A stretch of 64,000 bases of DNA from a virus, in the IMG/VR virus record IMGVR_UViG_3300031539_000002; one strand, written 5' to 3'. Within the stretch, counting starts at the first letter, position 1. Each line of letters begins with the position of its first letter. A program made the position numbers and the translations under genes. Below, piece after piece: positions 17,402 through 50,939 of this stretch. The notes under the pieces were generated by a model. The model was not told the origin of the DNA, did no database searches, and saw only the letters and a program-made list of their open reading frames with translations.

Positions 17402-17430
17402 GGTTCTGAGCCTATAGGAGGCCATTCGTG
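17402..17430 (+). promoter_or_regulatory. Class II (putative late) promoter motif GGTW-N6-CKAT..-N10-GTR, representative copy
   Basis: GGTT CTGAGC CTATAG ..GT G; further copies at 19213, 26417, 44371, 46734, 52129, 56427. Confidence 0.55.
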
Positions 17431-18692
17431 TGCAGCGCGTTGCGGCCCAGCTCCTGAGGTTTGCCCTCGAGAACCCTGCGTTTGCACGGGTGCTCGTTGC
17501 CGAGCTCAAGACGCGCCCTGAGTTTCGTGAATATGTGGACGGAAAACGGTTCCACAATCCCGAAACGGGCAACAAGGTTCTCTTCGAGAGCCTGCCCGAA
17601 CCGGACCAGCGGCGCGTGTACTTGGAATGGTGGCGCGCTCAGCGACGGGACAAAGAGCCCAAGGCCGATCCCAAGAAGCTCGAGGAGCGCCGCGAGACCA
17701 TCGAGAGCGGCAACCCGTGGGCGATCCCTTTGTGGGAGTACTACACTCGCGTCCAAGAAGGGTCGGGCAAGAAGCACCACGCCCCTGGCGACATCAAGAC
17801 GCAAACCGTCGAGAGTCTTGAGTGGATGGGGGAACCCAAAGAGAGCGATGTCAAAATCGGAGAGCGAGAGTTTGGCGACACGACGGTGAGTTTCTATCGC
17901 AGCACCGAGCGCAACAAGTACACGAGGAAGGACGAGAACGATGAGATCGTTCGCGATCCAGAGACAGGTCTGGCCACGTATCTGAGCGACGAAGAGATGC
18001 TCGACCGTGGGCTCCCCGCGTTCGGGACCACTGTCCGTGCGTATGATGGAGACACACCGATCGGCTCCGTAGCGGACGAGTGGGGCGCGAGCTTGGTGCA
18101 GGTTGCCGAGGAGCATCAGAAGAAAGGCATCGGCAGGTTCCTGAGTAAACTCTGGCGCAAGGCGTTCCCGTTCAAAAGCTCGGGTGGTTTCAGCGACCAG
18201 GGACTCTCCACCTTCAAACGTGTCTACCAGGACTTTGTGCGCGAGGCTCTTGAAAGCGGGGAGTACGACCGGGCGATGAAGGAGGGGTGGATGTCACCCC
18301 GTCGGTTCAAAGACATCCTCGACAGCGCAGGTTTGGACCCTCAAGGCAAGGAAGTGCGAAAGCCTCGGATTGACGCGCCCGATGCGGGGGGTTCCGATGA
18401 GTTGCACAAGGTTCGCGGAGAGCTGGCCGAAGCGGGCAAGCTGATGCGCGAGATGGATTGGGAAGAGACCGATTACACGGACGCTCAGAAGGCCGAGCAT
18501 CGCAAGAAGTACCACGCACTTCTGAGCCAGGCCATGCGTCTCGAGGAGGAAGAGAAGGACAAGGACGACGACGAAGGGCGCCAGAGGGATCAAAAGATGA
18601 GCGACCTCGCAGGCGCCTATTGGAAGGCCAAGCAGCGCGGAGATGCCGAAGAGGCTAAGCGCCTCTGGGACCAGATGGGCGCGATGGCGTAG
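17430..18692 (+). CDS. Putative virion cargo protein with GNAT acetyltransferase-like domain
   Basis: N-terminal RVAAQLLRFALENPAF helix and FHNPETGNKV motif; VQVAEEHQKKGIG (GNAT motif A) and FSDQG. Confidence 0.6.
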   Translation: MQRVAAQLLRFALENPAFARVLVAELKTRPEFREYVDGKRFHNPETGNKVLFESLPEPDQRRVYLEWWRAQRRDKEPKADPKKLEERRETIESGNPWAIPLWEYYTRVQEGSGKKHHAPGDIKTQTVESLEWMGEPKESDVKIGEREFGDTTVSFYRSTERNKYTRKDENDEIVRDPETGLATYLSDEEMLDRGLPAFGTTVRAYDGDTPIGSVADEWGASLVQVAEEHQKKGIGRFLSKLWRKAFPFKSSGGFSDQGLSTFKRVYQDFVREALESGEYDRAMKEGWMSPRRFKDILDSAGLDPQGKEVRKPRIDAPDAGGSDELHKVRGELAEAGKLMREMDWEETDYTDAQKAEHRKKYHALLSQAMRLEEEEKDKDDDEGRQRDQKMSDLAGAYWKAKQRGDAEEAKRLWDQMGAMA

Positions 18693-18701
18693 AAGAGATA
18701 G

Positions 18702-19217: not shown

Positions 19218-19240
19218 CGCTCCTATGCGACCACCTCCGT

Positions 19241-19786: not shown

Positions 19787-19924
19787 GGGGCCCGGGAGGT
19801 GGGCCGGGGATCAGGGCCCGAGCTTCTCACGGAGGCGCACAGGGCTTCTGGGAATGGATTTCGGGGTGCCTCGGTAGTATCCCCCGTGGGTGCGTATAAC
19901 CCACCCGCCCTCCAAGGAATCCTG

Positions 19925-30191: not shown

Positions 30192-30878
30192 ATGGAAAAC
30201 GAACAACAACAAGACGGTGTCGTCCGCATGGGCGACTTCTACGAAGACTGCCGCTACCACCCGATGCTTTGCGTCTGGAGAGACGGCGATGACTTGACCG
30301 GTGTTTCGCTTGTGACCGGGAAGATCGGGTGTTGCAGCGCGAGCCACTGCGGAGTTCAGAAGCTCGACAAATTCGATGCCCTGTATCTGCGGATGCACGG
30401 ACCACTCGATGCGTGGCCGATCGGGGAACGATGCCCGTGGCCGAAGGAACAGCAGTGGTGGAAAGAGGAGGCCGTGAAGCACTCGCAACATTCACGGTCG
30501 ATCCCCATCAAGACTCCACCTGGATGGAAGATCTACCCTGGATGGTCACCTGAGGGAGGTGAGTTGTGGGAGAGCTCCGATCAGATGCACTGGAACGAGG
30601 ACATGTGGGGCGCGACTGGCGACGAGTGGGTTCTCGACATCGGGTCCTATGGGAACCACCACGTCTACACCTGCAAAGCCCTTCGACGCCGACCGGTGCG
30701 GGAGGTGTTCCCCGAGGACTACGAAGAGACGATCAAGTTCTGGAATCTCGACGGGCCTGACGCTTTGGTCGTAAATTGGCAGGAGCCCGACGTGGAGGTT
30801 GATTTTCACGATCCAGAGGAAGCTGCTGCGTGGGCTGCTGCGTGGATGCAGCGGGGCGGTCCGCCAAAGAGCTCCTAA
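30192..30878 (+). CDS. Hypothetical Trp/Cys-rich protein
   Basis: GGGGAGG RBS; GDFYEDCRYHPMLC..CSASHCG. Confidence 0.5.
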   Translation: MENEQQQDGVVRMGDFYEDCRYHPMLCVWRDGDDLTGVSLVTGKIGCCSASHCGVQKLDKFDALYLRMHGPLDAWPIGERCPWPKEQQWWKEEAVKHSQHSRSIPIKTPPGWKIYPGWSPEGGELWESSDQMHWNEDMWGATGDEWVLDIGSYGNHHVYTCKALRRRPVREVFPEDYEETIKFWNLDGPDALVVNWQEPDVEVDFHDPEEAAAWAAAWMQRGGPPKSS

Positions 30879-30933: not shown

Positions 30934-32475
30934 ATGGCTCAGCTTCGATCTGCAACCGACCAGAACCTCGTGCGCCTTTTGCGGGCCCGCGCGGAAGGTG
31001 ACACTGCGTTTCGTGAATCTCTTGCGCGCGAGATTCAAGCTGAGCCGAAGTACCAAGAGTACATCCAGCGCAAGCGCCAGGAAGGCGCCTCGCAATGGCT
31101 TTCCGAAGAGGATTGGGAGGCATACGTCTTTGGCAAGGAGCCCGCGAACGAAGCTCCTGCTGAGCAGCCTGTTGAACAGGCTCCGACTCAAGAGCAGTCC
31201 GAGGAGCAGCGGCCAAGCGAAAAAGCCGACCCAGATGCGAAGGAGGAGAAGCGAAGCGACCGTTTGATGGGTCGGGTTAAACAGTTCATCAAAAACCGGC
31301 GTCGGCAGCGTGGGAAGAAGTTCTGGGAGGCTACCCAAACGACGGGGTCGATGCCCAAGCGGTTGTTCCCGACCCGGGAGACGCGGCACCTTCCGAAGTG
31401 GGCCGCGCAAACGAGCAACAACCCTGAGCGCATCATGGCGCAAGCTCAAGAGTCACAGTCGTTGATGATTGATTGGCTCAACCGAGGCCGCGGCATCGAC
31501 AAGGCTATCGGCGCCACGACCGTGCGTCGTGATGAAGACCCGAAAGCTGAGATCGACCTTTCGCAGAAGGGTCCTGTTCTTGTGATTGGACCTCCCAAGA
31601 CGAAGAAGGCGATGGAGGACAAGGTCCGGGAGCGGTACTCGCCGCGAGGAGTGCCGAATTGGAGCGAGGGAGCTGTGGACCTCATCCGTGCTTCGATCGC
31701 TGTGGATCGTTACGATGACTTGGCTGGCGTCGTGGACAAGCTCAAGGAAAGCGGCATCGAACTCGTATCGAAACCCCGAAATCGGTTTCGCCAGGCCACC
31801 GCTTCGGGGTATCGAGATGTTGTGCTCAACGCCCGACTTCCCAACGGCCACATCATGGAGCTTCAACTCCATGTGAAGCCGATGATCAAGGCCAAAGACA
31901 AGACCCATGGTCTCTACCAAGAGATTCGAGGGCTCGACACGAAGGACAAGGACGAGCTCAACGAGGAGCAGCAAGCTTTGCTCGACCGGGTTGCAGCGGT
32001 GCAGCGGGCTTCTTTCGATGCCGCTTGGGAGATGTCTTTGGAGGGGGTAGAGCCTGAGTCCATCTTCGATGCTCCTCTCTTCTCGGAGTCCAAGAAACCC
32101 AAGAAGCCCAAGCGACGCAAAAGAGCGGGAGAAGAAGAGGGAGAAGAGACGCTTTACTTTGACGTGGACGGCCTCCCTGTGTCGTGGGACCGCCCCAAGA
32201 TCCCGAAGATCCACGGTGGCGGGGAGCCCCGCAAAGTCCAAGATCTCGCTTGGTTCATGGAGCGCGCCGTTCCTATTGCGAAGGACGAGTTTGAGATCTT
32301 GGTCAACGCCCGCAAAGAGACGCCTCCGAAGGGTAAAGACGACAAGAGCGAGAAGAGCGAGAAGGCGGCGCGAGACCTGCATCTTCTAGCGGCCATGCGA
32401 CGCCGTGCCGCAACCGATCCCGAGTTCCGAAGCGCGCTCCAGAAGGCGATGCGGGCACGGAAAGAGAACCCCTGA
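30934..32475 (+). CDS. Putative virion cargo protein with RelA/SpoT-type nucleotidyltransferase domain
   Basis: DLIRASI, RNRF..SGYRDV.LN, IMELQLH; flanked by FR helices and SIFDAP. Confidence 0.75.
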   Translation: MAQLRSATDQNLVRLLRARAEGDTAFRESLAREIQAEPKYQEYIQRKRQEGASQWLSEEDWEAYVFGKEPANEAPAEQPVEQAPTQEQSEEQRPSEKADPDAKEEKRSDRLMGRVKQFIKNRRRQRGKKFWEATQTTGSMPKRLFPTRETRHLPKWAAQTSNNPERIMAQAQESQSLMIDWLNRGRGIDKAIGATTVRRDEDPKAEIDLSQKGPVLVIGPPKTKKAMEDKVRERYSPRGVPNWSEGAVDLIRASIAVDRYDDLAGVVDKLKESGIELVSKPRNRFRQATASGYRDVVLNARLPNGHIMELQLHVKPMIKAKDKTHGLYQEIRGLDTKDKDELNEEQQALLDRVAAVQRASFDAAWEMSLEGVEPESIFDAPLFSESKKPKKPKRRKRAGEEEGEETLYFDVDGLPVSWDRPKIPKIHGGGEPRKVQDLAWFMERAVPIAKDEFEILVNARKETPPKGKDDKSEKSEKAARDLHLLAAMRRRAATDPEFRSALQKAMRARKENP

Positions 32476-35400
32476 TGGCGGATTTCGAGTGGCAGAGTTT
32501 CTTCCTTGATGTGACGCCCGAGCCCCCGCGCTCGAAGGTGGCGCTGTCTATTTTCGATGCGCCAGATTCAGTGGAATCTGAGCCTCCTGAGAAGAAGAAA
32601 GAGCCCAAGCCCAAAGCTGAGGAGCCCAAGGCAGAGTCCAAACCGGAGGCGCCTGCGAGCATCTTTGAGACTCCGTCTGCGGAGCCGGCAGCCCCTGCCG
32701 AAGAGAAGCCTAAGGAGACGCCCGAAGAAGGGGGCCAACCTTACAGCCCTCCTGCGGGCGCACAGGACTCCGGTAAGTGGGAGGAGTTTCTCAACCTGTT
32801 TTACGAGGGCGGTAAAAAGAAGGTCAAGAACCCGAACGCGGAAACGAAGGACAAGTATCCCGAGGTTCAGCTAAGCACGGCACTCAAAGACCAAATGTTC
32901 GCCCATGGGATTCAGCAAGAGTTCCATGCGTGGCTACAGCAGGGCAAAGAAGACGATCCCGCGTCCGATGCCCCTGCGGTTGAAGAGAAGCCGAAGTCCG
33001 AGCAGAAAAAGAAGCCCAAAGTCGGCACGAAGGTCGAGAGCTTGGACCAGGTTGTCCCAGGCATGTTCATTGAGAACGCATGGGGGACGGTCGGCAAGGT
33101 CACCTCGATGCTGCCCGATGGCGGTTTTCGCTATCGGCAGTTCGACAAGATCACAAACAAGTGGAAGGGCACGACTAAGATCGACAAGGCGAAGGCCGAG
33201 CAGTACTTCTCAGGGCAGTCGTTTACCGTCACTGAGGATCCGGCCCAAGACATCCCGAAGGGCTCCACGACGGTTCACGGCACTGATGTCACGCCAGGGG
33301 ATACCGTCTGGTTCAACGGTGACCCCCGCAAGGTCAAGAAGGTTGAGGAGGACCCGAACAAGCACGGCTACCGGTATCAGCTAGAGGACGGCACTTGGGT
33401 CAACATGCACGACGTGGAGGGGCCCAAGATGGAGTCCCCACACTCGTACGTCTACCACCAGCCCGGTGATCCCGAACCGGAGCCAGAGCCCTCGGCCGAA
33501 ACCCCTAAGCCCAAGAAGAAGGAGAAGGTTGACGTTGGCGATAAGGTTGAGACCTCTTCGCAGCTCACCGAAGGGGATTGGCTTGAGAGCTTCGACGCCG
33601 ATGACCCGAGTGAAAAGTATCTCGGCAAGGTCACTGAGGTGGTTGAGGGGGGTCCCTTCGGAGAGAAGGGGGAGTATGGCCCTGGGGTCATGATCCAAGA
33701 CTACAGCGCCGTGACCGGGAAGATGTCGGGCAAGCCTTGGTTCCTTTCAGATGAGAAGTTGCCAGAAGGGGACACGACGAAGGTCAAGCCTCCGAAGGTC
33801 AAGAAGGGACTGACGGGCAAAGAGGTCACTGACTCCAAGAAGCTCCAAGAAGGCGACGTTCTTCGTATCCATGAGTACGACGGTGGCAAGACGTACACGG
33901 CCCAGGTCATCAAGAACGATGACGGCTGGATCGTTTACAACATCGTGAACCCCAAGACCGGAAAGGTCTCGGATACTCGCACGGTCTCACCGCAGACGTT
34001 TGCGGACGAGCTCCAGGTTGCACGTTTGCCTGCGTCGAAGGTCCCCAAGAAGCTCAAGCCGATGTCGAAGACGAACGATGACGGCTCCGTCAACCCGTTC
34101 GCGCTCGTCATGGAGCAGCACGCCGAGAAGGAGCTGGCCAAGGCGAAGGCCAAGAGCAAGGAGCAGACCGAAGACCTTCAAGAGGACGCGGACCCTCCGG
34201 CTGCTGCGCCCAAAAAGGACAAGCCCAAAGGCAAGACCAAGAAGGTCGACAAGGGCAAGTGGAAGCTCCAGACGGAGCAAGTCGGTTGGGACGACATCAA
34301 AGTCGGTGACATGGTCCACACGGCGGACTACGGGCCGCAGCGCGTCGTGGGCCATACGGGAAGCGGCGTACGCCTTGAGAGTGGCGTTGTCCTTACGAAG
34401 AGCCAGCTCAAAAAAGACAAGGGTCAGTTCACCGTTTCCCGAGGAGACAAGCCACAGAAGGCTAAGGCACCTCCGATTCCCGAACGTCCGCAAGGGAAAC
34501 TCGTCTCGAAGGCGGATACTGTTCAAGAGGGCGATGTCATCGAGTACGAGCACAACGGCACCACCTACCGTGGTGAGGTTGTCTCGTGGGACACCCTTGG
34601 AGAGAAGTTCCGCGTTCGCATCATCTATCCGCCTGAATACGTCGCCAAGTACGAGACCTACGACGAGGCGACGGGTGAGAAGAAGTTCAAGACCCCTTCG
34701 TTCGACCAAGCCAAGATTGACAAGCGCAAGCCTCGAATCCTCTCGAAGGATGAGATGAAGGCGTACGACGCCAAGGTCAAGGGGTACACGCAGAAGATCA
34801 AGGACATCGACAAGCAGTATTCCGAAGATGTGGCGGAGTACGAGGCCGCGATGTCGGGTCAGGAAACGGTCACCACGGGGCCGCTTCAGCACCTTGAACC
34901 CCCCAAGGATTGGAACCACGACAGCACCATTGCGCATGACGCTGACCGATTCTTTGAGCAGTACAAGGCGATGCTTGGAGATAAGATCGAGTCCATTGTG
35001 GGCGGGATGTCCTCGGGCAAGTCCTACTGGTCGGGGACATCTGCCATGTGGGACGAGATGTCCGAAGGAGAGCGTAAGCTCGCGCAGTCGGCCCACGATG
35101 CGGCACCTGAGTTCAGGAAGCTGTTGACTACGGAGGAATGGAGTGCGTGGCAAAGCGCGCTCTCAACTTGGCAGGGCTCGAGCGGAGGCTCGACCGCACA
35201 TACGCTGATGGGTGGCCTTGAAAACCTCGGGGTCGAGGGAGGCCCCAAGTATTTTGAGTCCTCAAACGTGCAGCATTACCGGGAAGAGGGGCGCAAGAAC
35301 GAGGCGCTCCATCGCGCGATCTCCAAGGCGATGGCGTACAGCCAGCTCGTCTACGACGCTCTTGGCGTGAAGGACGTATCCCTCTACCGCGGTACCAAGA

Positions 35401-38093
35401 CCAAACCGGTTCAAGGGGCCGAGCAGGGCAAGAAGATCACGACTACCACTGCGCGTGAACTTGCATCCTTCTCGATCGATCCTCAAGTCGCTTACAGTTT
35501 TGCGGGCGGAGACAAGCGAGTCGTCAGATATCGCGTGCCTGTTTCTCGCCTGTTCATTTCGCCTATCACGTTCGCCCCGCTTTCTTCGGCGAAGTCGCCG
35601 CACAGCGAGAACGAGTACGTCGTTGCCGGCCAGGATGGCATGGAGGGCAAGGTGATGCCCCAGAGCCTGTCCTCGTTCAGTTCGTCGAAGATGAAACTCG
35701 CAGCCTACGAGCGCCGCCCCTTGTTTGGGCCTGTCCTTGATGATGAGGCGTTGATCATCGAGTTTGAGCCTGAGGATGATGCGTGGCTGCGGGCGCCGGT
35801 CAAAGAGACCTGGTGGCCCAGCTACTGCAACCAGTACGATCAGTGGGCTGAGGAGTACGAGCCTCGAGTCGCCTCCAAGATCCTTCGATTGGCTCGTCAG
35901 CACTCGGGGTTCCGACGTGAACTCCTTGCGGTCCTGCATCCCGTCAAGAAGGCCACGACGGTTTTCGACGCTCCCGACACCAAGATGGCGGTTTCGATTT
36001 TCGATGCCCCTGACTCGGCCGCTGCCCCAAAGAAGACCAAGCCGCAGGAGCCCCCCAAACAGGGGCCCCCCAAGAAGCACAAGTTCATTGTTGACCCCAT
36101 CGATCCCGACAAGGAGTCGGACATCGAAGGAGACGCCGACGTGATTCGAGATCTCACAGAGAGTCTTGGGTACGGCCAAGTGACCGACGTGCACATTGAG
36201 GGTGATTACGACGAGGGCACCATCAAGGGCCGCATCGAGGTCGAGGTGGACGCCGACAAGGCACATGATTTCTACACGGCGTTGGGGGAAAAGGGGTACG
36301 CAAGCTGGCCCAAGCCCAAGCCTCCCTCGAACGGAGGCACCTTCGATGAGTGGTTCGCCAAGAAGTACGACGGCGGCAAGAAGAAGGTTCAGAACCCCAA
36401 CCCTGAGACCAAGGACAAGTACCCTGAGGTCGCCACGTCAACGGCGATGAAGGACAAGGCGTTCGCGGCCAAGGTCTATGCTGAATACCAGCAAGAGACG
36501 GGACAGGAAGCGCAGCCGAAGCCTCAGGCTGCTCCCCCAAAGGCAAAATCCCCGAAGCCCAAGGTTGCCCCTCCAGAGGAGGGACCCAAAGCGCTCAAGC
36601 CTTCCGATCTCAAGACCGGGGACAAGATCCGTTACTCGTACAAGGGCAACGAGTTCGTCGGTGATATCGTCTCCGCAGAAGGCGGGGAGGTTCGAGCGAA
36701 TCTCTATCACCCGAAGACGGGCAAGAAGCTGCGCTTCAAGCCGGTCACGATCAACGCGGAGAAGCTCAAAGAGTGGGGCGCAGAACGTGCTGACGACTGG
36801 CACCGTCCTCCTCCCCCGAAGATCAAGCCTGGTGTGAGGCTCGTCGTGCCCGACGAGGATCTCGATGGCCAGGTGATTGAGGTTGCCGACAAGTACCAAG
36901 ACGACGAAGGCAAGTGGATTCTCAAAGACACCGCCGGCGTGGAGTGGAACTGGGAGGGGTCGAGTGGCGGCAAATGGGAGGTGGCTCCCGAGAAGCCCAA
37001 GAAGAAAGAATACGCCGGCGGCCTCACGGAGGATGAGCACAGCTACATCTATTCGTGGCTCGAGACGGTGATGGGCAACGCCGAGGAGGACGGCAAGCCC
37101 GAGAAGAAGAAGCACTATGAGGACCTCCAGGCGAAGCTCTACGAGGGGAAGGAGCTCACTTTCGAGGAGGCCGACGAGCTGCACAGTATCGCGGACGATA
37201 ATCAAGACCCGGACCTGGACGAGGACTACGTTCCGTCCGCAGTCGAGAAACTGAAAAAGCTTCGGGATAGCCTTCAGCCAGAGGAGAAGCCCAAGGCTCA
37301 GGAACTGCTCGACATCGACGCGGGGGGTTTCAAGCAGGTCGGCCACCAGACCGGGAGCAACCCCGGTGGCCTTTACGAGGACAAGCAAGGCGAACGCTAC
37401 TACGTCAAGACGCCGAAGTCTGAGGACAGGGGACGCAACGAGATCTTGGCCGGCAAGCTCTACGGACTCGCGGACATCGCTATCCCTGAACTGACTCCTG
37501 CAACCCGCGACGGCAAGTTCAGCGTCGCTAGCAAGATCGTCCCAGGCCTCAGCGAGAATGCCCACAAACTTCGCTCTGGCGACGTGCCGGGGGTGCTCGA
37601 GGGCATTGCCGTGGACGCATGGCTCGGCAACTGGGATGTGGTGGGGCTCGAGTACGACAACCTGCTCGTGGACGAGGAAGGCAATGGTCGCCGCGTGGAT
37701 ACCGGCGGCGCGCTCCGATACCGAGCGATGGGTGCCCCGAAGGGTGATGCGTTCGGTGATGAGGTCACCGAGCTCGACACCTTCACGGACCCGGATCGGA
37801 AGTCCGGGAGTGTTTTCCACCACGCTACTCCGCAGCAGATCGTGGACAGCATTGACCGCGTGCTCGACATCCCCGAAGACAAGATCCGGGAGCTGGTGGA
37901 CCAGTGGGGACCGCAGGGCAAGGAGAGGGACAAGCTGTTCAAGACGCTCCTGGCTCGTCGAGAGAGCCTCAAGAAGCAGCGTGAGAAGTACGCAGAGAAA
38001 GCTGCCGAGAAGAAGGCAGCAGCCAGGGTATTGATGGCCGCACTCCGACGACCTGAGTTCCGTAAGGCGCTGCTGCGTGAGGTTCGGGGATGA
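32475..38093 (+). CDS. 1872-aa polyvalent protein: SH3/KOW-like repeats, ADP-ribosyltransferase, HipA/PI3-4K-like kinase
   Basis: ART: LYRG..ELASFS..ENEYVV (about 35380-35625). Kinase-like: GSNPGG, YYVK, NEILA, DAWLGNWD, DN, DTGG (about 37350-37730). Confidence 0.7.
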   Translation: MADFEWQSFFLDVTPEPPRSKVALSIFDAPDSVESEPPEKKKEPKPKAEEPKAESKPEAPASIFETPSAEPAAPAEEKPKETPEEGGQPYSPPAGAQDSGKWEEFLNLFYEGGKKKVKNPNAETKDKYPEVQLSTALKDQMFAHGIQQEFHAWLQQGKEDDPASDAPAVEEKPKSEQKKKPKVGTKVESLDQVVPGMFIENAWGTVGKVTSMLPDGGFRYRQFDKITNKWKGTTKIDKAKAEQYFSGQSFTVTEDPAQDIPKGSTTVHGTDVTPGDTVWFNGDPRKVKKVEEDPNKHGYRYQLEDGTWVNMHDVEGPKMESPHSYVYHQPGDPEPEPEPSAETPKPKKKEKVDVGDKVETSSQLTEGDWLESFDADDPSEKYLGKVTEVVEGGPFGEKGEYGPGVMIQDYSAVTGKMSGKPWFLSDEKLPEGDTTKVKPPKVKKGLTGKEVTDSKKLQEGDVLRIHEYDGGKTYTAQVIKNDDGWIVYNIVNPKTGKVSDTRTVSPQTFADELQVARLPASKVPKKLKPMSKTNDDGSVNPFALVMEQHAEKELAKAKAKSKEQTEDLQEDADPPAAAPKKDKPKGKTKKVDKGKWKLQTEQVGWDDIKVGDMVHTADYGPQRVVGHTGSGVRLESGVVLTKSQLKKDKGQFTVSRGDKPQKAKAPPIPERPQGKLVSKADTVQEGDVIEYEHNGTTYRGEVVSWDTLGEKFRVRIIYPPEYVAKYETYDEATGEKKFKTPSFDQAKIDKRKPRILSKDEMKAYDAKVKGYTQKIKDIDKQYSEDVAEYEAAMSGQETVTTGPLQHLEPPKDWNHDSTIAHDADRFFEQYKAMLGDKIESIVGGMSSGKSYWSGTSAMWDEMSEGERKLAQSAHDAAPEFRKLLTTEEWSAWQSALSTWQGSSGGSTAHTLMGGLENLGVEGGPKYFESSNVQHYREEGRKNEALHRAISKAMAYSQLVYDALGVKDVSLYRGTKTKPVQGAEQGKKITTTTARELASFSIDPQVAYSFAGGDKRVVRYRVPVSRLFISPITFAPLSSAKSPHSENEYVVAGQDGMEGKVMPQSLSSFSSSKMKLAAYERRPLFGPVLDDEALIIEFEPEDDAWLRAPVKETWWPSYCNQYDQWAEEYEPRVASKILRLARQHSGFRRELLAVLHPVKKATTVFDAPDTKMAVSIFDAPDSAAAPKKTKPQEPPKQGPPKKHKFIVDPIDPDKESDIEGDADVIRDLTESLGYGQVTDVHIEGDYDEGTIKGRIEVEVDADKAHDFYTALGEKGYASWPKPKPPSNGGTFDEWFAKKYDGGKKKVQNPNPETKDKYPEVATSTAMKDKAFAAKVYAEYQQETGQEAQPKPQAAPPKAKSPKPKVAPPEEGPKALKPSDLKTGDKIRYSYKGNEFVGDIVSAEGGEVRANLYHPKTGKKLRFKPVTINAEKLKEWGAERADDWHRPPPPKIKPGVRLVVPDEDLDGQVIEVADKYQDDEGKWILKDTAGVEWNWEGSSGGKWEVAPEKPKKKEYAGGLTEDEHSYIYSWLETVMGNAEEDGKPEKKKHYEDLQAKLYEGKELTFEEADELHSIADDNQDPDLDEDYVPSAVEKLKKLRDSLQPEEKPKAQELLDIDAGGFKQVGHQTGSNPGGLYEDKQGERYYVKTPKSEDRGRNEILAGKLYGLADIAIPELTPATRDGKFSVASKIVPGLSENAHKLRSGDVPGVLEGIAVDAWLGNWDVVGLEYDNLLVDEEGNGRRVDTGGALRYRAMGAPKGDAFGDEVTELDTFTDPDRKSGSVFHHATPQQIVDSIDRVLDIPEDKIRELVDQWGPQGKERDKLFKTLLARRESLKKQREKYAEKAAEKKAAARVLMAALRRPEFRKALLREVRG

Positions 38094-41000
38094 ACGACTG
38101 GACCGACTTTTTCTTGCAGAGGGCGCCTCGCCGAGCTGCAACGCAAACGCGGGTCGCACATGCTCGAGTTGCGCTCTCGATTTTTGACTCGCCAGATTCG
38201 GTTGAGCCTAAGTCTGAGGAAAAACCCGAACCGAAGCCTGAACCTCCGAAGGCAGAGAAGCCCGCGCCCGAACCTCCGAAGGCAGAGAAGCCCGCGCCTG
38301 AGCCTCCGAAGGCAGAGCCTCCCGCGAGTGTCTTCGATGCCCCGAGCCCTGATGCGGCGAAACCCAAAGAGAAGCCTGCCAAACCCAAGGCAGAGAAGCC
38401 GTCAGGGAGCAAGTGGCTTGAGTTTTTGGGCATCTTCTACGAGCAGGGCAAGAAGACGGTCAAAAACCCGAACCCGAAGACCGCCAAGAAGTACCCGGAG
38501 GTCATGTTCACCACGGCCATGAAGTTCAAGCCCTTCTCGGCTCAGGTGGCGAAGGAGTTTCAGGCGTGGCTGCAACAGGGAGGCGAGAAGCCCGCGAGCA
38601 AGCCTACGACTCCCGAACCTGAGGACGATTCGTACACGAACGAACAGTACGATGACGAACTCGGTTCCATCATCGATGAGTGGGAGAGCACCGACGGGGA
38701 CTTCAAAGAACTCGAAAGCATTGGCATGAAGTTCTGGGGTGACAAGTGGAACCCCGACATGCACGGGGAGATGCTCACTACGGTTAAGGAGCATTTCGAG
38801 TACGCGCTTGAAGATGCTCAAAGCCAGGGTGACGGCACAGGCTTTTACGAAGAGCAGATCGAGGAGGTTCAGAAGAAGATCGACGGACTCAAGAGCAAGT
38901 CCGAAGCTGAGGTGAAGAAGCCCGAGCCCAAGAAGGACAAACCCAAGAAACTCCCGAAGAAGCCGATCAAGAAGGTCCAAGGATGGGGACTCGCTCCGGG
39001 CATGACCGTCAAGCAGGACGGCAAGCCGAAGACGGTGAAGAGCGTGTCCTTCAAAGACGGATTGCAGATCGAGTTCGATGACGGTTCAAAGTGGTCTCCA
39101 GGTTTCGATGACAAGATCGAGGTCTTCGCGGAGGACGAGGCTACCCCCCTTGAGCACGGTGACAAGGTGACATCTGGTTCACAGCTCACGCCGGATCTCA
39201 TCCTCCGTCGTGGAAGCCAGACGGTCCAGGTAGTGAAGAGGATGCCTGACGGTCGAGTTCGTATCCGTCTCTTCAAGAAAGACGGGACTTGGGCGAAGGG
39301 CACCAAGTACTGGCCTGCCACTTGGGCCCATATTTCAATGCCCGCGCAGGAGTGGGAAGTCATCGGTGACCCCACCAAAGAGGCAGAACCGCCTAAGGAG
39401 AAATTGAAGGTCGGCGACAAGGTGCCTGACGCTTTTCATTTGTCGCCCGGTGACATCGTGTCCGTCAAGACCTACGGCACCGACTACGCCTACAAGATCG
39501 AGAAGGTCATGGCTGACGGCTCGTTGCGTATCTACCGACACGGGAGTGGGGACACTTGGTATGGGCCCCATAAGTGGAGCGCACACCAGGCAAAAAAACT
39601 GTTCAATTCGGACGATTCAAAGATCATCGAGCACCCCGATATCCAGGCGAAGAAGGACAAAGAGGAGGCTGAGGCAAAGGCCAAGATTCAGGCCGAGGAG
39701 TATGCCAAGGCTAAGGCCAAGAAGGAAAAGGAGAAGGCTGAGAAGGCCAAGAAGATCGAGGCCAACCGCCCGAAGCCGAAAAAGGGCAAACACGTCACTG
39801 CTCTGGACTCCGTGAAACTCGGTGATGCAATCACATGGGAGCACGAAGGCAAAACCTACGTCGGGCGTGTGTCCGACCAAGAGGGCAAGAACTTCTACGT
39901 TGCCACGGTGGACCCCAAGACGGGGGTGCAGGATGGTCTTTTCGCGCTCGGTGAGTACGATCTTCTACGGCTCCCGGTGGCACAGATCAGCGAATCTGAT
40001 TTGCCCCCTTCTGCGAAAGCCAAGCTTGCTCCGAAGCCCACGAAACCGGTGCCCCCCGAAGCACCCAAGCTCCCGAAGGCACCTGAGCCTCCGAAGTCGA
40101 AAAAGATCACAGAACCCTCTGAGGTCAAGGTCGGTGACTACGTCGAGTGGGAGCTCAAGGACAAAACCTACCGCGGGAAGGTCGTCTCATTTGATGAGGA
40201 CGGGAAGTTCCGTGCGAAGATCGACTGGCCTGAGGGTACGGGCAGCCTCGGCAAAACTCCGAGTTTCGATGCGAAGAAGATCGTCGATCGCGGCACCAGG
40301 GTCATCGACCCCGGGGCGATGGCGAAGTACGACGAGGTCAAGACCAAGCACGACAAGGAGGTCTCTGACCTGCAGGGTGCCCATCAGAAGGCGGTCGCCA
40401 AGCAGGACGCCAAGTTCCAGGAAGCGATGTCTGCTTGGCAGACACAGAAGGACCAGATTGAGGGCAAATCGTGGGTGCCCAAGCGTCCCGTCAAACGCGA
40501 GCAGGGCGAGAACATCCCGAGCGCGCCCGAGGCGTGGGACCACGATCATCCCATCATGGAGCAGGCATTCGATCTCGTGGACGAATACTCGACGAAGTAC
40601 GCGAGCTTCTTCGCTGAGAAGCGCAAGGAACTCGAGAAGAAGGCACAGTCTTCAACCGTCGGAGGCAGTTCTACAGCCGCGAAACAGATGTGGGATGAGA
40701 GGTCGATGGGCGAGAAGATGCTCGCCATCGGTGCTCATGACTTCGGGCACAAGTTCATGGAGGACGTGCTCACTCCTACAGAGCGCCAAAAGTTCTACGA
40801 TTACATTGGCAACTGGCAGGGATCTTCGGGCTCCGCCGGGGGCCACAAGCTGATGGGAGCGCTCGAGGCCATGGGAGTTGAGGGCAAGATGAAGGCCCAT
40901 GACAAGGGCAAAGAGCCTTACCGTGCGGAGGGCGCCCAAGACAAGGTGCTCCAGACTGCCATCGCCAAGGCCATGGCGTACACGCAAGCAGTAGGGGATG

Positions 41001-41836
41001 CGCTTGGTGTGGAAGAGATCACTTTGTATCGGGGAGGGAAATCATCGACCTCTAGCCTGTCATCCGCCAAGGCTGGACAGATGGTGGCGCTCCCCAATGC
41101 TCGGGAACTGACCAGTTTCAGCGCGAGCCCTTCTACTGCTTACGGGTTCGGAATGTACCAAATGAGGTCCCGTGTCCCGATCAGCCGTCTTTTCCTCTCC
41201 CCCATCACGTACCCCAAATTGGGTGCCGGAAGTGGGTCGGGCTCAGGATACGGCGAGAATGAATTTATCGTTGCCGGCATTGCGGGAGATGGGGTCCAAA
41301 GGATGCCCCCGTCGATGTCGGATTACGACCCGGTTGTCATGAACGCCCCGTCCAAGAAAGCAGCATCAATGAAGACCGCCGCGGATGAGGATGAGGATTG
41401 GGACGACGACCACGAAGATTGGAGCAAGCACATGGAAGACACCCGTACCAACAAGAAAACCGCTGTGAGGATTTTGCGGCTCGCCAAGAACAACGACAAG
41501 TTCCGTGATGAGCTGCTCGGCGCTATGCGTCGAGTCAATGCCCCTCGAGACTTCGCCGTCGAACAAGAAGCGCAGCAGGTTCTGCTCGCACACCTGCAAG
41601 CTGGCGACGTTGTGCGATTCGCTTTCCGAACCTCCGAGAACGCGCCCGCCGAAGAAGAGACGCGTGTTGCTTTGTTCGACTACGACCCCGCCAACCGGGG
41701 CGTCGAACTTTCGACTGAGGGCAGTGGTCGTGCGATGCTCGAGGACCGGGGACAAAATGAAGGGGTGGTCTACATCCCGAGCTCAGGGCCGGCCCGTCCT
41801 CTGCTCAAAATCACGCACGTTCGTTCGCGGATCTAG
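38090..41836 (+). CDS. 1248-aa polyvalent protein with SH3/KOW-like repeats and ADP-ribosyltransferase; paralog of preceding gene
   Basis: Same N-terminus (W..FFL, VALSIFD.PDS), NPN..YPEV, WQGSSG, LYRG..ELTSFS..ENEFIV. Confidence 0.7.
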   Translation: MNDWTDFFLQRAPRRAATQTRVAHARVALSIFDSPDSVEPKSEEKPEPKPEPPKAEKPAPEPPKAEKPAPEPPKAEPPASVFDAPSPDAAKPKEKPAKPKAEKPSGSKWLEFLGIFYEQGKKTVKNPNPKTAKKYPEVMFTTAMKFKPFSAQVAKEFQAWLQQGGEKPASKPTTPEPEDDSYTNEQYDDELGSIIDEWESTDGDFKELESIGMKFWGDKWNPDMHGEMLTTVKEHFEYALEDAQSQGDGTGFYEEQIEEVQKKIDGLKSKSEAEVKKPEPKKDKPKKLPKKPIKKVQGWGLAPGMTVKQDGKPKTVKSVSFKDGLQIEFDDGSKWSPGFDDKIEVFAEDEATPLEHGDKVTSGSQLTPDLILRRGSQTVQVVKRMPDGRVRIRLFKKDGTWAKGTKYWPATWAHISMPAQEWEVIGDPTKEAEPPKEKLKVGDKVPDAFHLSPGDIVSVKTYGTDYAYKIEKVMADGSLRIYRHGSGDTWYGPHKWSAHQAKKLFNSDDSKIIEHPDIQAKKDKEEAEAKAKIQAEEYAKAKAKKEKEKAEKAKKIEANRPKPKKGKHVTALDSVKLGDAITWEHEGKTYVGRVSDQEGKNFYVATVDPKTGVQDGLFALGEYDLLRLPVAQISESDLPPSAKAKLAPKPTKPVPPEAPKLPKAPEPPKSKKITEPSEVKVGDYVEWELKDKTYRGKVVSFDEDGKFRAKIDWPEGTGSLGKTPSFDAKKIVDRGTRVIDPGAMAKYDEVKTKHDKEVSDLQGAHQKAVAKQDAKFQEAMSAWQTQKDQIEGKSWVPKRPVKREQGENIPSAPEAWDHDHPIMEQAFDLVDEYSTKYASFFAEKRKELEKKAQSSTVGGSSTAAKQMWDERSMGEKMLAIGAHDFGHKFMEDVLTPTERQKFYDYIGNWQGSSGSAGGHKLMGALEAMGVEGKMKAHDKGKEPYRAEGAQDKVLQTAIAKAMAYTQAVGDALGVEEITLYRGGKSSTSSLSSAKAGQMVALPNARELTSFSASPSTAYGFGMYQMRSRVPISRLFLSPITYPKLGAGSGSGSGYGENEFIVAGIAGDGVQRMPPSMSDYDPVVMNAPSKKAASMKTAADEDEDWDDDHEDWSKHMEDTRTNKKTAVRILRLAKNNDKFRDELLGAMRRVNAPRDFAVEQEAQQVLLAHLQAGDVVRFAFRTSENAPAEEETRVALFDYDPANRGVELSTEGSGRAMLEDRGQNEGVVYIPSSGPARPLLKITHVRSRI
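38237..38326 (+). repeat. 30-bp tandem repeat x3 (PEPPKAEKPA)
   Basis: CC(T/C)GA(A/G)CCTCCGAAGGCAGAG..CCCGCG three times in frame. Confidence 0.9.
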
Positions 41837-43795: not shown

Positions 43796-43812
43796 CGTCG
43801 GTAGTGTCTACG

Positions 43813-44400
43813 GTGGCTTCGCGCTCCACCATCAGTCGCAAAGCCCTCGAACGTCTGTACCCCGGTGCTGACCTCGAGGGCTTTGTGCCGACACATTGGG
43901 TCGAAGTCCTAGACGGTCGAAGTCGGAAGGTGCTGCACGAAGACGCGGTTGTTCTCGGCGAGCCCGAGGGCCAGCACGGCATCCGTTACGCACACACACC
44001 AAGAGTTGAAGAGCCGAAGTACGCTTGCATCCCTCCTGAGCGTTGGCAGTGTCTTGAGCGACACGGCATGGTGCGTGCTCGAGTGGTGAAGTACGTCCCC
44101 GACTACGTGTTGCCTACCGACCGCATGGGCAACGTCTACTTCGTGCAGAGTTCAGGGCCTGCGGCTCCAATCAAGATCGGTTGGTCGCAAGATGTTGAGC
44201 GCCGTATCGCGGAACTCCAGACTGCAAACGCCCACAAGCTCGTGTTGCTAGGGACCGTGGCCGGGACCATGGAAAGAGAGGCTGCGCTGCACGCACAGTT
44301 CGCTTACTTACGCATGGAAGCTGAATGGTTCCGAAACGCGCCTGAGATTCACGCATTCATCGCGGCGAACGGTAGCGTGCCTATACGCGGCCAGGAGTAA
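43813..44400 (+). CDS. Protein with C-terminal T5orf172/MUG113-type GIY-YIG domain
   Basis: VYFVQ..IKIGWS..RRIAELQTAN..E..LH..F..EWF; GG-TAGTGT 5 nt before GTG. Confidence 0.7.
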   Translation: MASRSTISRKALERLYPGADLEGFVPTHWVEVLDGRSRKVLHEDAVVLGEPEGQHGIRYAHTPRVEEPKYACIPPERWQCLERHGMVRARVVKYVPDYVLPTDRMGNVYFVQSSGPAAPIKIGWSQDVERRIAELQTANAHKLVLLGTVAGTMEREAALHAQFAYLRMEAEWFRNAPEIHAFIAANGSVPIRGQE

Positions 44401-46772: not shown

Positions 46773-47189
46773 ATGTCCTTTTCACGAAATGCCGGTAGCC
46801 AAGCAGGCTGGGCTCTCATCACGGGTGGCGTAAACACCGCCCGTGTCGAGGTTCACCGTCTGCATCAGCTCCTCAACAAGGTTCTCGAGCTCGTGGAGTC
46901 GAGTCCTCAAAAGGAGCACCTCTACCAGGTTGCCGGCGATCTTATCGTGAACTTTCCGAAGTGCGTTGAGAAGATCGAGCACCAGCTTGACGAGACTGGC
47001 TACGCGCTTTCGGTGATGGGCAAGGACCATCTCAAAGATCGCCTCCCACTGTCCCGACGCAATATCGTGGATCAGACAGTCGAAGGAGCGCGGGCGTTCG
47101 GAGCTCCGATGCCGCGTACCTCGGCTGAGCGTGTACTCGAGAAGTACCTGGCCCAGAGAGTGGCGAAGCGACACGCCGAGGGGGAGTAG
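46773..47189 (+). CDS. Hypothetical helical protein
   Basis: Follows a class II promoter motif; C-terminal AQRVAKRH. Confidence 0.6.
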   Translation: MSFSRNAGSQAGWALITGGVNTARVEVHRLHQLLNKVLELVESSPQKEHLYQVAGDLIVNFPKCVEKIEHQLDETGYALSVMGKDHLKDRLPLSRRNIVDQTVEGARAFGAPMPRTSAERVLEKYLAQRVAKRHAEGE

Positions 47190-47192: not shown

Positions 47193-50100
47193 GTGCCTGA
47201 CTTCGGTATCCGAACGGCTCTGTCGGAGTTCGGCAAGGCCGTCGAGGGCAAGAAGTTTAAGCACCCCGAAACGGGCAATCAAGTGCTGTACACCTCGTTG
47301 CCGATGCCGGAGCAACACCGCATCTACGAGCAGTGGCAGAGTTACCAGACGTTGCTCGACCAAGCCCCGAAAGAAGGGGCCAAGGTAGAGGACATCAAGC
47401 AGCTCAAGAAGGACGACTACATCACGGTCCAGGGGCCGCAGAGTCTGCTGCACGCACGCATCGTAGGGATGCACAACGGGCAGCCCACGGCGCAGAAGGT
47501 TGACGCCCGCACGGGGAAGCCTACCAAGGACCCTGTATTCTCGATTTCACAGAAGGCTCTGGACGCGTTCGAGGTTCGCAAGCGCGATGGAGAGGGTGCC
47601 AAAGGCCAAGGCAAGCCCAAAAAGAATCCCTTCAAGAACCGGGACTCGTGGGAATCCGTTGTGCTCGATGATGTGTACGAAGACGATGTCATTGCGTACA
47701 GCGTCGGCGGCAAGGACCGGATGGGACGGGTCACTCGCACGACCCCAGACGGCAGCCAGTTCTGGATTCAAGAAGTCGATCCGCGAACGGGCAAGGTCAA
47801 GGACAAGACTGAGCGATCGTTCGACCAATCGAAAATCACGGAGCGTGACGCGAAGCTCGTGGACGAGGATATCTGGGACGAGATCGGGGTCTCAGAGAGT
47901 GACTACTCAAGCGGCGGTGCGTGGCAATCGGGTTGGGGTGGCTGGAGCGGCGGGAAGCCCAAGAAACCCCCGAAGCCCCTGACTCCTGAGGAAAAGAAGA
48001 AGCTCGAGGAAGAGCGCGCAGCCAAGGCTGCTGCACGCAAGAAGGCCGTCGAAGAGATGGGCAAGACGGGCAAGCCCCTCAAGGAAACGAAGGACATCAA
48101 AGCCGGGGACGTTGTCTCCTACCACTGGGAAGGCGAGGTCTATCACGGGCGCGTCGTTGATGCGCGAGGCCACGAGTTCTTCACGATCGACATCGACCCC
48201 AAGACAGGTGAACTCAAGGAGCATGGCTTTGAGGAATGGCGCGGCCACTCGCTCAAGGGCAGCGACATGCACAAAGTCGACGAGGAGCACGTCCCCGAAG
48301 ACCCTGCTGAAGCCAATGAGCAGGCGCTGTACGAGGGTCTCCCCAAACTCGAAGAAGACGCCAAGAAATACTTCCGGGACGACAAGGACGCGAAGCTCGT
48401 TGACCTTGAAAAAATCACGCCGGCCAAGGTGCGGCTCAAGGGTGTCCTCAACGGCAACGACCTGCTCGCATCAGCGGCAAAAGGCCATGGGGGCAAACGT
48501 GCTCCTATCAGCCTGATCGAGAACGAGGACGGCACCTACACGGTGCGTGACGGCAACTCGACCTACAAGAACGCCGAGATCTCCGACTGGAAACAGATCC
48601 CCGCCATCATCAAGACGAAGGCGGAGTGGGACGCTCACGACAAGGCTGAGGAAGAACGCAAGAAGAAGCAGCAATCTTTGTGGCCCTCTCAAGGTCAGCA
48701 GCCGAAGGTGACGAAGGAGAAGCCCCCCAAGGAGAAGCCCGCGACGTTCCAAGGCGAAGTTCTCGAGAGCACCGAGGGGCTCGAGAAGGGCGACTTGTTC
48801 GGATACGAGTTCAAGGGCCATTGGTACGTGGGACGTGTGGACCGTCGCACGAAAGATGGCGGCATCCTTGTTGACTCGGTTCACCCCGAAAACGGCCGTC
48901 TCACTACTCTCAAGTACATCCAGTTTGAGGATGCAGACATGAAGGATGGGAAGGCCATGCGCCTTCCCAAGGACTTCGAGTTCCCCAAGAAGAAAAAGAA
49001 AGCACCCCTGAAGTTGCCCCCCAAAAAGAAGGACAAGGACAAGGGGAAGGGCAAAGGGAAACCCGGTAGCGGGAAGCCTTTCATGTTCGCCTCAAGGACG
49101 GCTGCGGGCGATGACATGCGAAGTGTCCTCGCAGACCTTCGCCAAGCTTATCGCCCACTCTGGCAGGACACCCCCGGCTACAAGACCGTCGTTGACATCG
49201 ATTCTGAGAAGGGCATTTCCCCCTCACAGACCGAGAGCACGGACCTGGACCGCGGCCAGGACAACATGGACTCGTCGTGGCCCGTGCAGGCCCCGCAGTC
49301 GCGTGAGAAGGAGCGCGCCCTTCCCCTGCCCTCGAACCACAGCAAGAACCGTGAAAAACGGATCGGCCCCACGACCATCAACAAGCCACGTCACGTCCCA
49401 GACCGCACCCTGTCTGTTCCTGGCGAAGAGTATGGGCACCCGACCAAGTACGACTACAACTTTCCTACGAGGCGCAACGAGACGCTCGCAGGAACCGATG
49501 ATGAGCTCGAGCCGGTTGCCAACGCTGGCCGTCAAGGCCCCTTCCCGGTAGAGCACCAGAGGAACCAAGGAGGAAGCGCGAAGATCGATTCAAGGGTCAA
49601 CTATCGCCGTGACCCCTCCAAGCGCATGCGCATGAAGCGTAAGTATCAGATGCGCGACAAAAGACAGCCGAAGGAGAAGCTCAAGGACAAGTACTATCGG
49701 ATGTACCCGCATCGCTTCAAACGGCGTGGCATCGGTTTCACGACCCCCGCAGAGCGTACGAAGGCGTGGCGCGAGGAGAACAAGGCCGACGACATTCGCA
49801 GTGGCGAAAAGGGCCGTAAGGAACGTCAGAAGGCGAAGGAGAAACGCCTCAAGGATCGTTTTGAGCAAAAGCAAGCTGGGCTTGAGTTTCTTGCGGAAGC
49901 GTTCGACCTACTCGGGCTCGATTTCATGGGCGCGAACTGGCCCATTGATTGGAACACCACCACCAAGCAGACAGGACCCCCGGCACAGCTCGACCAGAAC
50001 CACGGGAAAGGTGTTGATCGAGGCACCGGGACGCCGCGCACAGATCCTTCCAAGCAGGAGGGCGGGAGCCTTCGTGCCCCAAACCTGCCTGCCAAGCATC

Positions 50101-50939
50101 AGCCCGGGTTGTATACGCAGAATCTGCCCCCGGCTGCGGGAGCGATTGACATACCGACGACCAACAACCCGACCGATGGCTCGGGGAAGGTCCTCCCGAT
50201 GGAGTGGTACTCCGATGCCGTCAACAATACGCAGGCGATTCCCGACGGCCGCCAAGATCGATACGAGCGGAACAACAACTTCGACGTCAAGCAGGCCACG
50301 CGGAAGTTCATCCACGGGCTCTGTCACCCTGAGTTTGGTGTGGGGGTTCGTTCGAGCTTCGGGCCCGAGGGGGGTCATCAGCGCGTCGCCATGACGGTCG
50401 CTGACATCCTCAAGCGGTGTGACAAGAAGATCAAACTGCGGTCGAAGGAGTACACCCCGAAACTCGCCCGCACCGACACCAAGAATTGGATCTGGCACTG
50501 GAGCGTCGGAGACCACACGGTCCGCGTTCAGGCATTCAAACGAGGCAATGCCTCAAACTTTCCGAAACTCAATCTGAGAGTTTCATGTTCGTGCCCCTAT
50601 TGGCGGTGGTGGGGGCCGGCCCACTGGGCGACCAAGACGGACTATCAGAAGGGGACGGCTCCAGGGACGGCTGCGTACCCTCAGATCCGAGACCCGGCGC
50701 ACTGGAGGCCCGTCTGCAAGCACGCCTACGCCGTCCTTGAGAAGTCGCAAGACTTCTTTGTGAGGCCCAAGAAGAGTCCCCTGAGAAAGCTCGGTTCCCG
50801 GTTTTCAGTCGATAGCCCTGACGCAATTGAAGTCGTGATCGAGGAAGAACACATGGCAGCGCGCGTGGCGCAACGGTCGATGGAGCGCGACGTCATTCGA
50901 CGCGTGGCTCACCGGTACGTTGAAGGGGAGGAATCCTGA
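47193..50939 (+). CDS. 1248-aa modular protein: HPETGN motif, SH3/KOW-like repeats, ParB/Srx-like domain, C-terminal SWIM-like Zn finger
   Basis: KKFKHPETGNQV; APISLIENEDGTYTVRDGNST; LRVSCSCPYW..VCKH. Confidence 0.6.
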   Translation: MPDFGIRTALSEFGKAVEGKKFKHPETGNQVLYTSLPMPEQHRIYEQWQSYQTLLDQAPKEGAKVEDIKQLKKDDYITVQGPQSLLHARIVGMHNGQPTAQKVDARTGKPTKDPVFSISQKALDAFEVRKRDGEGAKGQGKPKKNPFKNRDSWESVVLDDVYEDDVIAYSVGGKDRMGRVTRTTPDGSQFWIQEVDPRTGKVKDKTERSFDQSKITERDAKLVDEDIWDEIGVSESDYSSGGAWQSGWGGWSGGKPKKPPKPLTPEEKKKLEEERAAKAAARKKAVEEMGKTGKPLKETKDIKAGDVVSYHWEGEVYHGRVVDARGHEFFTIDIDPKTGELKEHGFEEWRGHSLKGSDMHKVDEEHVPEDPAEANEQALYEGLPKLEEDAKKYFRDDKDAKLVDLEKITPAKVRLKGVLNGNDLLASAAKGHGGKRAPISLIENEDGTYTVRDGNSTYKNAEISDWKQIPAIIKTKAEWDAHDKAEEERKKKQQSLWPSQGQQPKVTKEKPPKEKPATFQGEVLESTEGLEKGDLFGYEFKGHWYVGRVDRRTKDGGILVDSVHPENGRLTTLKYIQFEDADMKDGKAMRLPKDFEFPKKKKKAPLKLPPKKKDKDKGKGKGKPGSGKPFMFASRTAAGDDMRSVLADLRQAYRPLWQDTPGYKTVVDIDSEKGISPSQTESTDLDRGQDNMDSSWPVQAPQSREKERALPLPSNHSKNREKRIGPTTINKPRHVPDRTLSVPGEEYGHPTKYDYNFPTRRNETLAGTDDELEPVANAGRQGPFPVEHQRNQGGSAKIDSRVNYRRDPSKRMRMKRKYQMRDKRQPKEKLKDKYYRMYPHRFKRRGIGFTTPAERTKAWREENKADDIRSGEKGRKERQKAKEKRLKDRFEQKQAGLEFLAEAFDLLGLDFMGANWPIDWNTTTKQTGPPAQLDQNHGKGVDRGTGTPRTDPSKQEGGSLRAPNLPAKHQPGLYTQNLPPAAGAIDIPTTNNPTDGSGKVLPMEWYSDAVNNTQAIPDGRQDRYERNNNFDVKQATRKFIHGLCHPEFGVGVRSSFGPEGGHQRVAMTVADILKRCDKKIKLRSKEYTPKLARTDTKNWIWHWSVGDHTVRVQAFKRGNASNFPKLNLRVSCSCPYWRWWGPAHWATKTDYQKGTAPGTAAYPQIRDPAHWRPVCKHAYAVLEKSQDFFVRPKKSPLRKLGSRFSVDSPDAIEVVIEEEHMAARVAQRSMERDVIRRVAHRYVEGEES

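Follow-up and report, generated by a model that had tools for sequence, protein, structure and literature searches.

Introduction

The experimental precedent for loading proteins into a phage head by means of a short peptide comes from bacteriophage T4, in which a capsid-targeting sequence on Alt and on the internal proteins IPI-III is removed by the gp21 prohead protease (PMC5694885, PMC3012670). The enzyme types discussed below are also predicted to be packaged in the polyvalent proteins (Iyer et al. 2017, PMC5512222). Here we describe a modular protein family in a stretch of 64,000 nucleotides (called the window) with a GC content of 60% from an uncultured large phage (IMG/VR record IMGVR_UViG_3300031539_000002). 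Five large genes of the window, starting at 17430, 30934, 32475, 38090 and 47193, combine different enzymes with one set of small parts: two kinds of terminal helix (tag A and tag B), a domain of about 60 residues with an NPN..KYPEV motif (NPN domain) or an HPETGN-type unit in its place, and SIFDAP-type peptides. We propose, with a probability of about 0.5, that the tagged proteins form an effector family of giant phages in which a constant delivery part is joined to an exchangeable enzyme part. The helices and, probably, the SIFDAP peptides would dock the enzymes in the assembling head, from which they would exit with the DNA.

The T4 signal resembles the window tags in being a short peptide common to unrelated proteins, one of them an ADP-ribosyltransferase (ART), and docking in the prohead followed by proteolytic release is proposed for both. 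In T4, it is an N-terminal propeptide of 10-20 residues that terminates in L/I-x-E, whereas the window tags are found at either terminus or inside chains. Unlike T4, the window system has two helix types that almost exclude each other, a folded 60-residue domain and the SIFDAP peptides. Its tags have no sequence likeness to the T4 signal, and cleavage is here a proposal made from sequence. The polyvalent proteins, like those of the window, are giant multi-enzyme proteins with ART, RelA/SpoT, ParB, kinase, GNAT and NUDIX domains, predicted to travel with the DNA. The window system differs from them in its conserved part, which consists of short tags and a small domain, the NPN domain, that has no model in Pfam or PHROGs. 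The MuF-fused polymorphic toxins of temperate phages likewise combine a constant head-incorporation module with variable toxin domains, including RelA/SpoT and ART. In contrast, the constant part in the window is the NPN domain with the helix tags, and the carriers are huge phages of lytic type; a Pfam scan of the five window proteins found no MuF (PF04233) or portal domain.

Encapsulin cargo-loading peptides and the encapsulation peptides of bacterial microcompartments are short amphipathic helices that direct diverse enzymes into a protein shell; they are found at either terminus, on a linker of poor conservation. Encapsulin shells share the HK97 fold. Such shells are cellular organelles without DNA or ejection, and their peptides have no sequence relation to the window tags. 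Tag sharing of this general kind is already known; the modular family itself is undescribed, and its NPN and tag parts are new.

Proteins that reach the cell together with the phage DNA are active ahead of all phage gene expression, which makes them decisive in the first minutes of infection and in the struggle with host defences. In uncultured giant phages, the injected proteins are beyond the reach of proteomics, and a sequence signature would allow candidate injected effectors to be listed from metagenomes. If the proposal holds, sequence alone would suffice to recognise injected effectors, and the tags could serve as portable packaging labels for foreign proteins. Independently of packaging, the family provides a new small domain with a confidently predicted fold, two terminal helix motifs and one short linear motif, all absent from current family libraries.

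The tagged proteins and their shared parts

We compared the window with four relatives: G001 (213 kb), G002 (a 141-kb fragment and the closest relative), G003 (a complete IMG/VR phage of 435 kb) and G004 (407 kb). Of these, G001 and G002 share synteny with the window. The five tagged proteins, with lengths in amino acids (aa), are as follows.

17430-18692, + strand: 420-aa protein; N-terminal tag A hairpin (17445-17510), HPETGN-type domain (~17500-17665), GNAT-like region
30934-32475, + strand: RelA/SpoT-like protein; one SIFDAP peptide (32059-32076), two divergent terminal helices of the DP.FR..L type
32475-38093, + strand: 1872-aa protein of two units
Unit 1 of the 1872-aa protein: N-terminal peptide, two SIFDAP peptides (32547, 32658), NPN domain (~32775-32955), SH3-like repeats, ART (~34900-35700), tag A (35874-35939)
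Unit 2 of the 1872-aa protein: two SIFDAP peptides (35958, 35994), NPN domain (~36336-36510), kinase-like domain (~37300-37980), C-terminal tag A (38022-38087)
38090-41836, + strand: 1248-aa protein; N-terminal peptide, two SIFDAP peptides (38177, 38327), NPN domain (~38405-38585), SH3-like repeats, ART (~40530-41330), tag A (41465-41530), small C-terminal beta-rich domain
47193-50939, + strand: 1248-aa protein; HPETGN-type domain (~47220-47375), at least three SH3-like/Tudor barrels, ParB-like segment (~48330-48690), SWIM-like zinc finger (~50586-50750), two overlapping C-terminal tag B helices (50853-50927)

The initial annotation, made from the letters of the window, had proposed that these genes reuse one parts list. 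Motif frequency relative to shuffled proteins had been set beforehand as one check, and the motifs are commoner than in shuffles. The SIFDAP-type peptide (regular expression [ST][IV]F[DE][AST]P) occurs seven times in six frames, all in the open reading frames (ORFs) at 30799, 32475 and 38090, compared with an expected count of 0.02 in shuffled proteins, which agrees with the seven or more copies in three proteins claimed before. The ORF at 30799 is that of the RelA/SpoT-like protein, whose true start is its Met46. The six-frame scan also confirmed the small NP motif and its relatives as annotated, with three NPN..KYPEV units (32829, 36393, 38465), two HPETGN units (17556, 47262) and none elsewhere. 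The modules common to the window proteins also surface in an all-against-all BLASTP comparison, in which no pattern was supplied.

In the whole of G001, the motifs are confined to orthologues of the tagged window proteins. Conservation of the motifs extends to three related phage contigs. All tags are present in orthologues of 35-55% identity, whose intervening Pro/Glu/Lys linkers cannot be aligned; the tags stand as islands of identity inside diverged linkers. The 38090 protein is a clear case, with every tag kept and the linkers diverged in the orthologues P0006 and P0007, and the G001 orthologue of the 17430 protein (64% identical) has likewise kept the tags. A contig with a GC content of 43% encodes a 768-aa protein with SIFDAP, NPN, barrel and ART in the same order as in the window. 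Both ART proteins (32475 and 38090) also have a conserved N-terminal M-x-D-[WF]..FF peptide, which had been overlooked.

In the 38090 protein, a beta-rich domain of about 100 residues (41530-41833) follows tag A, which is thus internal. This domain is kept in P0007, P0008 and P0016, and a family search with it gave no match. Residues 1018-1061 of the 47193 protein (50244-50375) are 50% identical to the C-terminal end (56233-56349) of a 301-aa protein encoded at 55477-56382.

Two alternative terminal helices

The amphipathic helix of the initial annotation corresponds to tag A, a 22-residue hairpin with the pattern L[IV][KR]LAxxxPxFRxxL. HMMER found almost nothing with such short tag profiles, and log-odds matrices with shuffled controls were used instead. 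The tag A profile was built from unrelated family members, and shuffles gave 0 matches at 12 bits or more. On this profile, four of the six annotated helices (17445-17510, 35874-35939, 38022-38087 and 41465-41530) score 24-33 bits, the one in the 17430 protein reaching 31 bits; the other two, in the RelA/SpoT-like protein, are considered below with the points against head loading.

Tag B is a second terminal helix, RVAxR[FYW]L, that occupies the same place as tag A and had also been overlooked. Counts by profile against shuffles are 12 to 0 for tag A and 14 to 0.8 for tag B. A plain regular expression for tag B, R[IV][AV]xx[WYFL], was barely enriched in the window (9 vs 3.5), and only the profile combined with terminal position is informative. 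The two tag B helices of the 47193 protein score 12.6 and 11.4 bits, and its G001 orthologue scores 20.3 bits. Tag B is also found at the C-terminus of the neighbouring protein (15.5 bits; orthologues in G002 and G001, 20.3 and 18.5 bits), and by profile it lies at the termini of a dozen G003 proteins.

46773-47189, + strand: 138-aa protein with C-terminal tag B (47121-47156), identified with the tag B profile

Among 151 representatives of the family, 35 have tag A, 36 have tag B and one has both, and because of this single overlap the two tags look like alternatives and not like letters that can be combined. Tag A is N-terminal in 21 and C-terminal in 9 cases, and tag B in 28 and 6, respectively.

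The NPN domain and the SH3-like barrels

An AlphaFold model of the 38090 protein (118 sequences) gives residues 105-163 a pLDDT of 92-97. The predicted order is a helix, two short strands and two helices, and on this model the NPN unit is a domain, not a peptide. The HPETGN unit is modelled with the same helix-strand-strand-helix order and aligns loosely with the NPN domain, of which it is probably a divergent form. A Foldseek search with the NPN fold gave no match, the best Z in a VIA-wide comparison was 3.2, and nothing analogous turned up in the PDB. When 1.84 billion representatives were searched exhaustively with a profile, the domain was located in 237 protein clusters, 167 of them at E ≤1e-10. 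In species genomes, it occurs in only 2 of 185,579, in both cases on contigs of metagenome-assembled genomes.

The SH3/KOW-like repeats of the initial annotation do fold as such in the models, which predict tandem small barrels of five strands that match the SETDB1 triple Tudor (Foldseek E 7.5e-5, probability 1.0); VIA comparisons gave Z 6.0-6.7 at a root-mean-square deviation (rmsd) of 2.2-3.1 over 61-68 residues. We therefore describe the modelled repeats as SH3-like/Tudor barrels, in terms of fold only. The first barrel of the 47193 protein (model of 47193-48272, residues 60-134) resembles the TraI translocation-signal domain of type IV secretion (4l0j; Z 6.3, rmsd 2.5, 64 residues), a lead only, given the middling Z.

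Payload enzymes

Most family members are 300-450 residues long and consist of a terminal helix, an acidic linker, the NPN domain and an enzyme. Clustering of the 151 representatives showed the NPN domain and tags on at least 25 unrelated payload groups. Among 117 members, Pfam names the payloads with the following counts.

DRAT-like ART: 31/117
Exotoxin-type ART: 16/117
PI3/PI4 kinase: 6/117
GNAT: 3/117
NUDIX: 2/117
HAD: 2/117
DUF3293: 2/117
SAM lyase: 1/117
Peptidase_Mx (metallopeptidase): 1/117

Among the differing payloads that had been annotated in the window, the two ART domains are paralogues (41% identical), and the motifs LYRG, [ST]FS and ENE[YF] (the Arg, Ser-x-Ser and Glu-x-Glu of ARTs) are invariant in both copies and in the orthologues. 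The DRAT match (Pfam PF07357) of the 38090 protein has an E of 3.4e-4 at 20.3 bits, compared with a cut-off of 25, and the 32475 protein has no Pfam DRAT match; the best of the 31 family members reaches 3e-9. The RelA/SpoT assignment has moderate support: the protein matches a PDB small alarmone synthetase (E 8.5e-4 over 66 residues) and RelA_SpoT clusters (Atlas 0.94-0.95), and a search against Pfam (PF04607) gave no match. Its structural neighbours in the Atlas include a MuF minor-capsid fusion cluster.

The other three assignments (GNAT, ParB-like and kinase-like) are tentative, with weak support. The GNAT region of the 17430 protein gives a Pfam E of 0.02 and Atlas 0.91. In the 47193 protein, ParB_N matches at E 0.018, and the SWIM-like finger at 19.4 bits lies just below its cut-off of 19.6. 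For the kinase-like domain (37300-37980), we found no profile match to HipA or PI3-PI4-like kinases and no PDB sequence match, either alone or as a profile. A homologue with 58% identity matches HipA_C at 4.6e-5, below the HipA_C cut-off, and homologues with 36-45% identity occur in cultured phages. At least two effector domains can share one polypeptide, namely an ART and the kinase-like domain in the 1872-aa protein and the ParB-like and SWIM-like segments in the 47193 protein.

The tail that follows the ART in the window proteins, with an acidic ..EDW strand, a Lys-rich stretch and the terminal helix tag, is a separate small ORF in some phages (L023, ~9110-9274; L024, 9092-9451; L062, 10878-11090). 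The separate ORF may reflect a split gene or a frameshift, or may encode a co-loaded partner. It would also fit a partner or inhibitor peptide, and thus the view that the shared parts were passed down within a single growing enzyme family and serve the enzymes themselves, by oligomerisation, autoinhibition or docking of a small partner, with no addressing. The largest payload group, the DRAT-like ARTs (61/151), does bear most of the tags. We nevertheless consider this quite unlikely, as tags and NPN domain are spread over so many unrelated payload clusters and tag B is also found on proteins with neither an NPN domain nor an ART. The occurrence of mutually exclusive tags A and B at either terminus fits a common external partner better.

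SIFDAP peptides and possible cleavage sites

In the AlphaFold model of the 38090 protein, the SIFDAP regions are disordered, and the peptides are not docked onto the NPN domain. Two giant proteins of G003 (164659-170832 and 189938-193453) have S-[IL]-F-G-x-P peptides, which are intermediate between SIFDAP and the ..VFGLP.. tail of the scaffold-like protein described below.

Lys/Arg-x-Ala directly precedes four of the seven SIFDAP copies, compared with 0 in shuffles, and stands before most C-terminal copies of tag A. In the giant proteins, K-[KT]-[TA]-A precedes tag A, and unit 2 of the 1872-aa protein begins right after such a site. The motifs might accordingly be read mainly as recognition and cutting signals of a head-maturation protease, that is, as a polyprotein processing code with loading decided by other means. 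This is highly unlikely in our view, as Lys/Arg-x-Ala alone is not enriched (202 observed vs 206 expected) and the second SIFDAP copy of each pair lacks it. Members of middle size are tagged but have no polyprotein joints, and a cut site leaves conserved helices of 12 to 22 residues unexplained.

Head genes and the case for head loading

The initial annotation had overlooked the capsid gene of the window. This gene and the synteny with the relatives identify the window as phage DNA. A megablast search of phage records with 20 kb of the window found no cultured relative, and a single-protein scan of viral contigs found no relative either. Two head genes of the window are relevant here.

4659-5534, + strand: major capsid protein, 291 aa, assigned by identity to the G003 and G002 capsid proteins; candidate docking surface
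2348-3793, + strand: acidic, low-complexity scaffold-like protein with a conserved C-terminal tail, assigned by its position just upstream of the capsid gene

The capsid protein is 98% identical to that of G002, 84% to that of G003 (itself Pfam Phage_capsid at 28.3 bits) and 83% to that of G004. A shell protein conserved at 83-98% is unusual for contigs and genomes that range from 141 to 435 kb. The scaffold-like protein, for which a family search gave no match, occupies the same slot as proteins of 442 and 474 aa between the protease and capsid genes of G003 and G004.

Tagged giant proteins are encoded between the portal and the prohead protease in G002, G003 and G004. The order in G003 is portal (PHROG portal, 6e-27), a 1166-aa protein with tag B and two copies of tag A, head protease (2.6e-12), scaffold-like protein and capsid, so that the 1166-aa protein lies three genes from the capsid gene. 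The genes of G004 are arranged likewise, and the protein after its portal closes with tag A. In G002, a giant NPN protein comes after the portal, and next to it a protein of 2260 aa that has tag B as well as two HPETGN domains. No head genes were found within 8-10 kb of the NPN loci L057, L059, L061 and L062. Two cultured phages encode homologues of the kinase-like domain. In the Yersinia phage fHe-Yen8-01, the homologue is part of a 2146-aa protein that carries the note 'phage particle associated protein' in its GenBank record. In the Gordonia phage Sixama, the gene of the homologue gp73 follows the portal gene immediately and lies upstream of the one for the capsid maturation protease; an ADP-ribosyltransferase is encoded nearby.

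Loading into the head, for which all the support is contextual, is the best-supported mechanism, at about even odds. The delivery part would consist of a terminal amphipathic helix (tag A or B), a flexible charged linker, which in this clade bears the SIFDAP-type peptides, and the NPN domain, or the HPETGN unit as its variant. During assembly, the enzymes would be docked onto an inner head component (scaffold, portal or capsid protein) by the helices at their termini and, probably, also by the SIFDAP peptides. The docked enzymes would be enclosed in the head and would later leave with the DNA, as for T4 Alt and the internal proteins. The Lys/Arg-x-Ala before many tags may be the site at which the head protease frees the enzyme from its anchor.

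More tentatively, and with doubt on our part, a widespread lineage of huge phages with one capsid protein may rely on an address system that works regardless of tag position and loads a varying set of enzymes into its heads. Such a system may comprise the two interchangeable terminal helices, the 60-residue adaptor domain and the SIFDAP peptides, and its cargo may include ARTs, kinases, an alarmone synthetase, a SAM lyase and perhaps RecA and topoisomerase IB.

Several observations weigh against head loading. In the window, the five genes are not part of the head operon; they are found among replication-type genes, at 12 to 43 kb downstream from the capsid gene. Whereas the T4 signal is N-terminal, the tags can be internal or at either end of a chain. 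The Lys/Arg-x-Ala of P0001 stands before a tag at the N-terminus, where a cut would not free the enzyme, and the flat overall count of this site has been given above. The two helices annotated in the RelA/SpoT-like protein are kept in orthologues despite profile scores of only 2.4 and -0.3 bits, below the 95% value of shuffles (3.6). For the fHe-Yen8-01 protein, particle association is a record note only, and we found no paper on this phage. The scaffold tail ..VFGLP.. was considered as a SIFDAP mimic; on a profile of 37 SIFDAP instances, it scores below 6 bits, compared with 15-34 for true copies, which is not significant and makes it a lead only. Finally, each genome has only 1 to 4 NPN genes. 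Because of this number, and because tags A and B look like alternatives, the combinatorial head-targeting and ejection code of the initial annotation is not established; what stands of that claim is the modular parts list with its many payloads.

Two further G003 proteins bear on the same question. RecA (L037; 248879-250273, Pfam 3.8e-50) has a tag-B-like helix at its C-terminus, and a type IB topoisomerase (L036; 228430-229485, 2.3e-26) has one at its N-terminus, each at 15.6 bits. Tag B on these two proteins also counts against the head and could indicate DNA or a replication compartment. The tags might then address the enzymes to a site in the infected or newly invaded cell, with the basic amphipathic helices binding the membrane or a DNA or replication compartment, the SIFDAP peptide binding a host or phage protein such as the sliding clamp, and the barrels binding RNA polymerase or nucleic acid. 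The barrels are indeed similar to the Tudor domains with which PcrA/UvrD, CarD and Mfd bind RNA polymerase (Z about 5), and the location of the five genes outside the head operon fits as well. S-[IL]-F-D is also reminiscent of clamp-binding tails (QxSLF; the RB69 polymerase tail), which we treat as a lead only. Clamp motifs do not have the D-A-P that is strongly conserved behind the Phe, and their Gln is missing from SIFDAP. Together with the position of tagged giants between portal and protease in three relatives and the homologue annotated as particle-associated, this makes a cellular address unlikely.

Other features of the window

A protein with a T5orf172/MUG113 (GIY-YIG-related) domain is encoded at 43804-44400, amid the cargo genes. 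Farther downstream, three adjacent paralogous genes (52198, 52876 and 53925, within 52198-54599) have both ends in common, and two proteins of 615 and 1367 aa (56489-63423) have a common, internally repeated segment of about 200 residues. Both sets are probably tail or fibre genes.

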